Part shown: positions 4,984 through 5,160 of the stretch, one piece after another
How the letters are laid out: every line of letters starts with the position of its first letter
Numbering within the stretch: the first letter of the stretch is position 1
Source: Escherichia phage SholemSchwarzbard
Length of the DNA: 64,000 bases
Sequence record: PP925840.1
Strand: one strand, 5' to 3'
Translations under genes and position numbers: made by a program
The notes under the pieces: generated by a model
What the model saw: the letters and a program-made list of their open reading frames with translations, nothing else
Database searches by the model: none
What the model was told of the DNA's origin: nothing

Positions 4984-5160
4984 TTACCCTTTAAGTAAGT
5001 CGTAAAATCCACCATTCACATGCTTAGGAGCAGAAGGCCGACGAGTAGACAAACGATGACATTTAGGGCAAACATCATTTTCTCGTTCAGAAATCTTTTT
5101 AATTTTTTCATATTCATGCCCGCAATCTTCGGATTGGCATTTATAATCATACATTGGCAT
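4984..5160 (-). CDS. small zinc-ribbon protein (CxxC...CxxC), 58 aa
   Basis: hand-translated ORF MPMYDYKCQSEDCGHEYEKIKKISERENDVCPKCHRLSTRRPSAPKHVNGGFYDLLKG; below the 60-aa cutoff of the ORF track. Confidence 0.55.
   Translation of the reverse strand: MPMYDYKCQSEDCGHEYEKIKKISERENDVCPKCHRLSTRRPSAPKHVNGGFYDLLKG

Follow-up and report, generated by a model that had tools for sequence, protein, structure and literature searches.

The window considered here is a stretch of 64,000 nucleotides (nt) from Escherichia phage SholemSchwarzbard (PP925840.1), and our subject is the small open reading frame (ORF) at positions 4984-5160, which encodes a putative zinc-ribbon protein, together with twelve further small ORFs on the same strand. 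A 4-kb stretch around this focal ORF has matches in 743 phage records, the best being Escherichia phage PinkRuby (97% identity, 100% query coverage), the numbering of which is the same as that of the window. The gene order, rIIA, topoisomerase gene 39, goF, cef, motB, dexA, dda and so on to tk, regB, denV and e, is that of T4. Given this order and the PinkRuby match, the window corresponds to the opening 64 kb of a genome of the T4-like genus Tequatrovirus. The minus strand, which carries the early genes, holds 122 of the 130 tiled ORFs.

The thirteen ORFs are given below, with identities assigned by tblastn and from the annotation tables of relatives. Ratios of non-synonymous to synonymous change (dN/dS) derive from Nei-Gojobori counts pooled over distinct copies from T4 (two records), PinkRuby, RB69 and 58 IMG/VR loci, the IMG/VR scans covering few T4-like genomes with 3-30 loci per anchor. 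Numbers of phage records come from searching 50,697 phage genomes, translated in six frames, with ten of the ORFs. Lengths are in amino acids (aa), E is the expectation value, CDS an annotated coding sequence and GRAVY the grand average of hydropathy.

4984-5160, minus strand: gene 39.2 homologue, 58 aa, FmdB-type zinc ribbon, protein MPMYDYKCQSEDCGHEYEKIKKISERENDVCPKCHRLSTRRPSAPKHVNGGFYDLLKG (PF09723; phrog_1076; dN/dS 0.16; 885 phage records, 851 near full length).
13724-13888, minus strand: modA.4 homologue, 54 aa, 98% to T4 modA.4 (phrog_2681, E 2e-37; dN/dS 0.12; T4 protein seen by mass spectrometry).
15478-15651, minus strand: 57-aa ORF between soc and gene 56, 98% to PinkRuby CDS0030 (phrog_9053, E 2e-25; dN/dS 0.13, from only 2-3 distinct sequences; 70 phage records, including RB14ncORF029c); T4 has the homing endonuclease gene segF at this site instead.
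17665-17829, minus strand: 61.1 homologue, 54 aa, low-complexity and charged, 96% to T4 61.1 (phrog_1823, E 7e-34; dN/dS 0.09; 1,396 phage records, including T4-likes of Aeromonas, Acinetobacter and Klebsiella).
23931-24080, minus strand: 49-aa hydrophobic ORF with an ATGA overlap with the imm stop and two predicted membrane segments (phrog_3610, E 2e-26; dN/dS 0.39; GRAVY 1.50; 581 phage records; PinkRuby CDS0046, RB69ORF054c).
35439-35579, minus strand: 47.1 homologue, 46 aa, predicted membrane peptide, 100% to T4 47.1 (phrog_6693; dN/dS 0.03; GRAVY 1.73; 601 phage records).
36888-37061, minus strand: a-gt.2 homologue, 57 aa, basic, 94% to T4 a-gt.2 (Pfam DUF5486, E 4.5e-40; dN/dS 0.28; T4 protein seen by mass spectrometry).
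39883-40059, minus strand: 55.6 homologue, 58 aa, 72% to T4 55.6 and 100% to PinkRuby CDS0075 (phrog_2283, E 1e-34; dN/dS 0.40).
43652-43828, minus strand: 58-aa TifA-family protein, strongly basic (+9), directly downstream of pin (PF23945; dN/dS 0.29; 367 phage records; RB69ORF087c).
44729-44899, minus strand: 56-aa acidic (-9) helical ORF in the slot of T4 49.3 (phrog_3402, E 1.5e-40; dN/dS 0.22, from only 2-3 distinct sequences; 829 phage records; PinkRuby CDS0085, RB69ORF091c).
55013-55120, minus strand: mobD.2 homologue, 35 aa, with a strong Shine-Dalgarno sequence, AAGGAG, 91% to T4 mobD.2 (phrog_3515, E 1e-21; dN/dS 0.38; 745 phage records).
55181-55354, minus strand: mobD.2a homologue, full-length at 57 aa (Pfam DUF7438, E 3.5e-16; phrog_2758, E 3e-35; dN/dS 0.05; 643 phage records).
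57746-57922, minus strand: 58-aa ORF in the tk.1-tk.3 cluster, 97% to PinkRuby CDS0114 (phrog_3452, E 6e-28; 440 phage records, all full length, 364 of them at less than 60% identity).

All thirteen are intact, with a length that is a multiple of three, an ATG start, a stop codon at the end, no internal stop and a product in the predicted range of 35-58 aa. They fill slots within a near-gapless tiling of minus-strand genes, ten overlapping the upstream gene or starting no more than 3 nt from it. ATGA-type overlaps or Shine-Dalgarno sequences had been noted for them. Three, 13724-13888, 23931-24080 and 57746-57922, have a true ATGA stop/start overlap with the upstream gene, and ORF 43652-43828 has a TAATG overlap, whilst in many of the remaining ATGA starts the final A is just the first letter of the second codon. 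In 9/13 a Shine-Dalgarno core of 4 nt or longer lies at -18 to -4, compared with 17-18% of random positions or of all same-strand ATGs. When the slot of each ORF was shuffled 5,000 times and scored for an ORF at least as long as that observed, the probability per slot was 0.001-0.014 and the summed expectation 0.04 ORFs, against the 13 observed.

The reading frames are conserved in T-even relatives. Pooled over the proposed frames, the proportion of non-synonymous differences (pN) is 0.065 and of synonymous differences (pS) 0.302, for a dN/dS of 0.21; shifting the reading of these alignments to frame +1 or +2 raises it to 1.12 or 1.05, respectively. Values for single ORFs, for all that have an estimate, extend from 0.03 (47.1) to 0.40 (55.6). 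Every ORF matches a PHROG family, with E from 7e-12 to 1.5e-40. The ten surveyed are each present in 70-1,396 phage genomes, and full-length protein matches persist down to 40-60% identity. For ORFs 13724, 36888 and 39883 the support consists of homology to T4 and RB69, PHROG and Pfam matches, dN/dS and T4 proteomics. In a time course of RNA sequencing and proteomics on T4 the transcripts of 39.2, modA.4, 61.1, 47.1, a-gt.2, 55.6, mobD.2 and mobD.2a are early, and the proteins detected include ModA.4, A-gt.2, 55.6, Tk.2 and 49.1, with 55.6 detected early (PMC9697503, Tables S2/S4).

The genes had been presented as overlooked, and that framing falls away. All thirteen are already known, as annotated CDSs in public relatives and as members of existing PHROG families. 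Eight carry names from the T4 genome annotation (39.2, modA.4, 61.1, 47.1, a-gt.2, 55.6, mobD.2 and mobD.2a) and the other five (15478, 23931, 43652, 44729 and 57746) are CDSs in relatives. They seemed unannotated because the ORF track first consulted cut off at 60 aa. They are of mixed kinds and do not make up a single system. The several hydrophobic peptides that had been proposed come to three, 23931, 35439 and, more weakly, 55013, which we predict to be small membrane peptides. The plural 'zinc ribbons' does not survive, since a four-cysteine zinc-ribbon pattern is found only in ORF 4984-5160 among the thirteen.

The product of that ORF, gp39.2, is by sequence a member of the FmdB-type zinc-ribbon family. 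It matches the Pfam model PF09723 (Zn_ribbon_8) with E 6.7e-12 and 45.7 bits, above a gathering cutoff of 34.4, over profile positions 1-39 of 41, and its N-terminus, MPMYDYKC, agrees with the family signature MPxY[ED]YxC. Searching with a profile of 13 phage homologues brought up 108 proteins, 108/108 with PF09723, including chromosomal proteins of Cutibacterium, Propionimicrobium and Thermomicrobiales. Residues M1, P2, Y4, Y6, K7, C8, C13, C34 and P45 are invariant in 13 diverse phage members, a distant set that is biased by a locus scan seeded with the MPxY[ED]YxC motif. The cysteines are at positions 8, 13, 31 and 34; in an alignment of 65 sequences Cys8, Cys31 and Cys34 are invariant and Cys13 is kept in at least 90%, and all four are predicted to bind zinc. 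With the family at large (PF09723 / TIGR02605) gp39.2 shares the MPxYxYxC N-terminus, two cysteine knuckles and small size. It departs from it in the first knuckle, which is Cx4C in the T4 branch and CxC in another phage branch where the family has CxxC, and in a T-even-specific C-terminal motif, SAPxxVxGGFY. Many cellular FmdB members have a Ser/Gly-rich tail. The tail of gp39.2, SAPKHVNGGFYDLLKG (SAPKHVNGGFY), is conserved among T4-like phages. The AlphaFold2 model, computed from the 65-sequence alignment, has a four-strand core (residues 1-41) with a predicted local distance difference test score (pLDDT) of 79-87 and a disordered tail (residues 47-58).

In T4 the gene lies on the same strand at the same site, between goF and 39.1/39. 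The protein is 81% identical to the 58-aa protein of the modern T4 assembly, 93% to that of RB69 and 100% to that of PinkRuby. The T4 RefSeq record differs in annotating 45 aa, and the window differs from T4 in an extra GoF-like gene between 39.2 and 39.1. This is a 123-aa gene at 4610-4981, directly downstream of 39.2 and belonging to the PHROG of goF (phrog_622, E 2e-28). The order cef-goF-39.2-(goF-like)-39.1-39 is kept on the early strand in the annotations of T4, RB69 and PinkRuby and in 21 T4-like loci, down to 50% identity. The 39.1 homologue itself (4345-4605) starts MKYINRSIAALVLAVSLAGC, resembling a lipoprotein signal peptide with a lipobox (weak match to Pfam LPAM_1, E 0.096). Upstream of the cluster lies one further element:

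6720-6748, minus strand: candidate early-type promoter upstream of motB, TTTACA-17-TATAAT (11/12 consensus match).

This match probably starts the transcript that carries 39.2. No terminator-like site was found on the minus strand between it and 39.2, and the two observations fit a position for 39.2 as an internal cistron of an early polycistronic mRNA.

For gp39.2 we propose a zinc-bound four-strand ribbon with a conserved disordered tail, which would serve as a small binding module, ribbon and tail together docking on a host or phage macromolecule in early infection. As its neighbours are RNA-related, the docking may belong to that setting. That gp39.2 acts with the flanking GoF-family proteins on RNA, for example in mRNA stability, is the alternative that fares best, though we regard it as unlikely. 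In its favour, 39.2 in the window and in one 51%-identical relative sits directly between goF and a second GoF-family gene, the tRNA-related cef is adjacent, and the GoF family has a predicted LSm-like fold, with GoF(D25Y) stabilising an mRNA (PMC12152347). The synteny may be mere inheritance, however, and the second GoF-like copy is absent from T4 and several other genomes. The distant FmdB-type ribbons of unrelated phages have varying neighbours (terminase, PhoH, HNH and RusA genes), with no recurring partner found outside the T4-likes, and 39.2 is not mentioned in the GoF paper (PMC12152347).

Less probable again is a role for gp39.2 in regulating transcription by binding DNA, which is what the public label 'FmdB-like transcriptional regulator' on PHROG 1076 and many GenBank records suggests. 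The label is inherited from the family name, which comes from a gene adjoining the formamidase gene in Methylophilus. Full-text literature searching on FmdB and zinc ribbons found no functional study, and a search on T4 39.2 likewise found no functional paper. Neither Pfam nor the AlphaFold2 model reveals a DNA-binding domain, just the 41-residue ribbon. RbpA, which binds RNA polymerase and has a small ribbon core, is among the top Foldseek matches (template modelling score 0.54, E 0.69) and lends the label some colour, but these matches are non-significant and generic zinc ribbons, the others being the N-terminal domain of MCM and aRF1. A sequence search of the PDB returned just a non-significant match to bL31 (E 0.78).

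The second ORF for which a role can be proposed is that at 43652-43828. Its product matches Pfam PF23945, 'DUF7279', with 62.2 bits (cutoff 24.5) over profile positions 1-53, and the same model covers T4 TifA (gp61.4) and RB69 TifA over the whole profile with 72.7 and 72.1 bits, respectively (T4 20115-20369 and RB69 19753-19962 of the retrieved stretches). Because both proteins match at 72 bits, DUF7279 is, on sequence grounds, the TifA family and could be renamed. Profile comparison by hhalign aligns the ORF 43652 product with TifA at a probability of 94.7% (E 6e-8). The short stretch RPTKKMIRQYKRLHR falls where TifA has RPTKRQIRQYKRYFR, so that a Pro-Thr cap and basic cluster, P40, T41, K42, K43 and R46, correspond to P53, T54, K55, R56 and R59 of TifA. 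Invariant in nine members of the subfamily are P40, T41, K42, R46, K49, R50, H52 and R53. TifA is an experimentally demonstrated inhibitor of the type III toxin ToxN (PMC9391042), and its P53A/T54A and K55A/R56A/R59A mutants lose both RNA binding and ToxN neutralisation (PMC10853763).

The phage also has the genuine gene, which makes ORF 43652 a second, shorter paralogue:

18811-19068, minus strand: tifA (T4 61.4), 85 aa, paralogue of ORF 43652, 98% to T4 TifA.

The likeness between the two spans the Pfam model over the whole length of the shorter protein, the Pro-Thr cap and the residues of the RNA-binding basic helix. The differences are that the ORF 43652 product has 58 aa and not 85, being without the N-terminal 17 residues and the C-terminal extension, and that the loop linked to ToxN specificity in the TifA work is not alignable in it. 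Nor does it share the dmd-tifA operon position, since it adjoins pin, downstream of which it lies, and not dmd. RB69 has two short TifA-like copies flanking pin and three family members in all. In the window (43652-44274) and in RB69 pin and the small TifA-like ORF are separate genes. In both T4 records a deletion of about 130 nt has joined pin in frame to the final 15 codons of a 43652-type ORF, so that Pin ends ...SFSDRMIQQYKRLHQMFYNT. The 15-residue tail MIQQYKRLHQMFYNT of the T4 Lon inhibitor Pin (12897-13382 of the retrieved stretch) is thus the remnant of a TifA-like ORF. The short copy beside pin is unmentioned in the two TifA papers (PMC9391042, PMC10853763).

Most likely the ORF 43652 product would bind RNA through its TifA-like, Pro-Thr-capped basic helix, and plausibly it would neutralise an RNase-type defence toxin. 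Its activity cannot be assumed because several divergent TifA homologues neutralised no ToxN on the panel against which they were tried (PMC10853763). That it is a functional second counter-defence protein of the TifA type, RNA-binding and directed at a target other than the ToxN of TifA (another type III toxin or an RNase-based defence), with T-even phages carrying a small expandable family of inhibitors from which T4 lost a copy by deletion, is a tentative proposal that we hold at somewhat less than even odds. Small proteins of this kind had been described as often being host-takeover factors. That statement finds support in one ORF only, 43652-43828, through its membership of the TifA family; no host-directed role was shown for the remaining twelve, the focal zinc ribbon included.

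The acidic ORF 44729-44899 invites a comparison with T7 Gp5.9, a DNA mimic that inhibits RecBCD. The proteins are alike in size and charge (56 aa and -9; 52 aa and -8 for Gp5.9), and a 'VTIP' motif followed by an acidic helix is common to both, the AlphaFold2 model of ORF 44729 having a confident helix at residues 18-37. Residues 12-31 give sub-threshold matches to the Gp5.9 family (Pfam PF25708, E 4.7e-4; phrog_6234, E 8.6e-4). The resemblance, in length, net charge and a short N-terminal motif, does not extend to the tests of homology. The Pfam score of 20.5 bits is below the cutoff of 24.5 with the match limited to residues 13-31, BLASTP against T7 Gp5.9 gives no match, 0/26 relatives carry a Pfam assignment, and Foldseek with the model finds nothing (best E 7). 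The best PHROG label, 'antitoxin', is a different one. A Gp5.9-like role is accordingly doubtful.

Taken together, the intact frames, the pooled dN/dS and the PHROG matches for 13/13 uphold the claim of conserved, genuine small genes. We put at about 0.92 the probability that the thirteen are protein-coding small early genes of a T4-like phage, a mixed collection already in public annotation, with the roles proposed for 39.2 and 43652. Long polycistronic early transcripts from the minus strand would carry them, and translation would begin either at a Shine-Dalgarno site of their own or through coupling to the preceding cistron.

Several points weigh on the other side. Coding status is read from sequence and from data on T4 homologues, and the functions given to gp39.2 and to the ORF 43652 product are ones that we infer. 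Foldseek with the gp39.2 model against the PDB found nothing significant (best E 0.44). Nucleotide divergence in the loci fetched for ORF 57746 is too low for a dN/dS estimate, and for the hydrophobic ORF 23931 the value of 0.39 is poorly separated from that of one alternative frame, 0.56. The T4 time course (PMC9697503) assigns no protein class to five of the T4 genes, 39.2, 61.1, 47.1, mobD.2 and mobD.2a. This is weak evidence because 47.1 and mobD.2a lack a UniProt entry in the table and RefSeq 39.2 has a frameshifted C-terminus. On ribosome profiling of small T4 proteins, searching the literature returned nothing relevant.

The view that these ORFs are untranslated, whether as chance frames or as products of over-calling in AT-rich DNA between genes, is essentially refuted: spurious small CDSs do exist (PinkRuby CDS0104, CDS0050, CDS0099 and CDS0127 translate a repeated promoter-like motif) and ATG ORFs of 35-59 aa number 132 in the window, mostly lying within larger genes, but the per-slot shuffle probabilities, a dN/dS well under 1 in the proposed frame alone, full-length matches at 40-60% identity across hundreds of genomes and detection of three T4 homologues (modA.4, a-gt.2 and 55.6) as proteins all speak against it.

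As a catalogue of small genes the list of thirteen is real but incomplete, having missed three that are likewise intact:

39458-39589, minus strand: 55.4 homologue, 43 aa, 95% to T4 55.4.
40749-40862, minus strand: 37-aa ORF between 55.8 and nrdG, 100% to PinkRuby CDS0078.
44258-44413, minus strand: 49.1 homologue, 51 aa, acidic (phrog_2382, E 1e-33); the T4 protein is seen by mass spectrometry (PMC9697503, Tables S2/S4).

The comparison also exposes faults in the T4 reference. Gene 39.2 of RefSeq NC_000866 carries a single additional T (cgcTtcct) and some five substitutions with respect to the modern T4 assembly OZ209023 (5665-5839 and 5650-5826 of the respective retrieved stretches). The extra T shortens RefSeq 39.2 to 45 aa, whereas 39.2 of modern T4, RB69 and the window encodes 58-59 aa; the frameshift is probably a legacy sequencing error. 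RefSeq mobD.2a, 38 aa with a frame break, is likely a second artefact, as the modern assembly encodes 57 aa, the length in the window (23996-24165 in NC_000866 and 316-489 in OZ209023, again in retrieved stretches). Positions 26230-26376 of T4 hold an intact 49-aa hydrophobic ORF, 84% identical to 23931-24080 and overlapping the imm stop, which is annotated in neither NC_000866 nor OZ209023. The annotators of RB69ORF054c remarked in 2003 that it is 'similar to T4 42-imm intercistronic region'. No homologue of ORF 57746-57922 was found in T4 RefSeq, from which it follows that the gene content of tk.1-tk.3 varies among T-even phages. The true relative of T4 tk.2 (52% identity) is the neighbouring ORF at 57564-57749, which has a GTG start and 61 aa and directly follows tk.

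Other features of the window were recorded in passing. A repeated intergenic motif, atgGTTTACaag ... tggTATAGTaat (GTTTAC...TATAGT), resembling a T4 early promoter, occurs at 55083-55181, 19273-19314, 50933-50998, 24972-25073, 52379-52515 and 6107-6172. In PinkRuby it has been called as 'hypothetical proteins' (CDS0104, 0050, 0099 and 0127). These are probably spurious calls and not genes, since several copies in the window hold in-frame stops and the motif recurs between genes. A 295-aa minus-strand ORF at 30770-31657, between gene 45 and rpbA, has no counterpart at that place in the annotations of T4, PinkRuby and RB69. It gave no match above threshold in a Pfam scan and is possibly a mobile element, for example a homing endonuclease, inserted there. 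On the opposite, plus strand a conserved 66-aa ORF at 16437-16637, between genes 56 and 61 (phrog_2024, E 1e-31), is annotated in PinkRuby, RB69 (ORF029w) and the modern T4 record, and is without annotation in T4 RefSeq. Between gene 43 and regA, 27841-28143 is an unusually long stretch, 301 nt, without an ATG ORF, and the vs.5 homologue (60774-60948) shows a frame change relative to T4 vs.5.

The value of these results as discovery is small, the genes being already in GenBank and PHROGs and mostly on the classical list of T4 genes. Their practical value lies in curation and the choice of targets, the modest addition being the TifA-family assignment and the curation points. A 60-aa cutoff hides about 16 real genes in these 64 kb of T-even sequence. 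The RefSeq errors in 39.2 and mobD.2a and the omitted 42-imm ORF limit proteomic detection based on that reference, and the label 'FmdB-like transcriptional regulator' is spreading without evidence. For the biology of these phages, the short TifA paralogue beside pin is an obvious candidate anti-defence gene.

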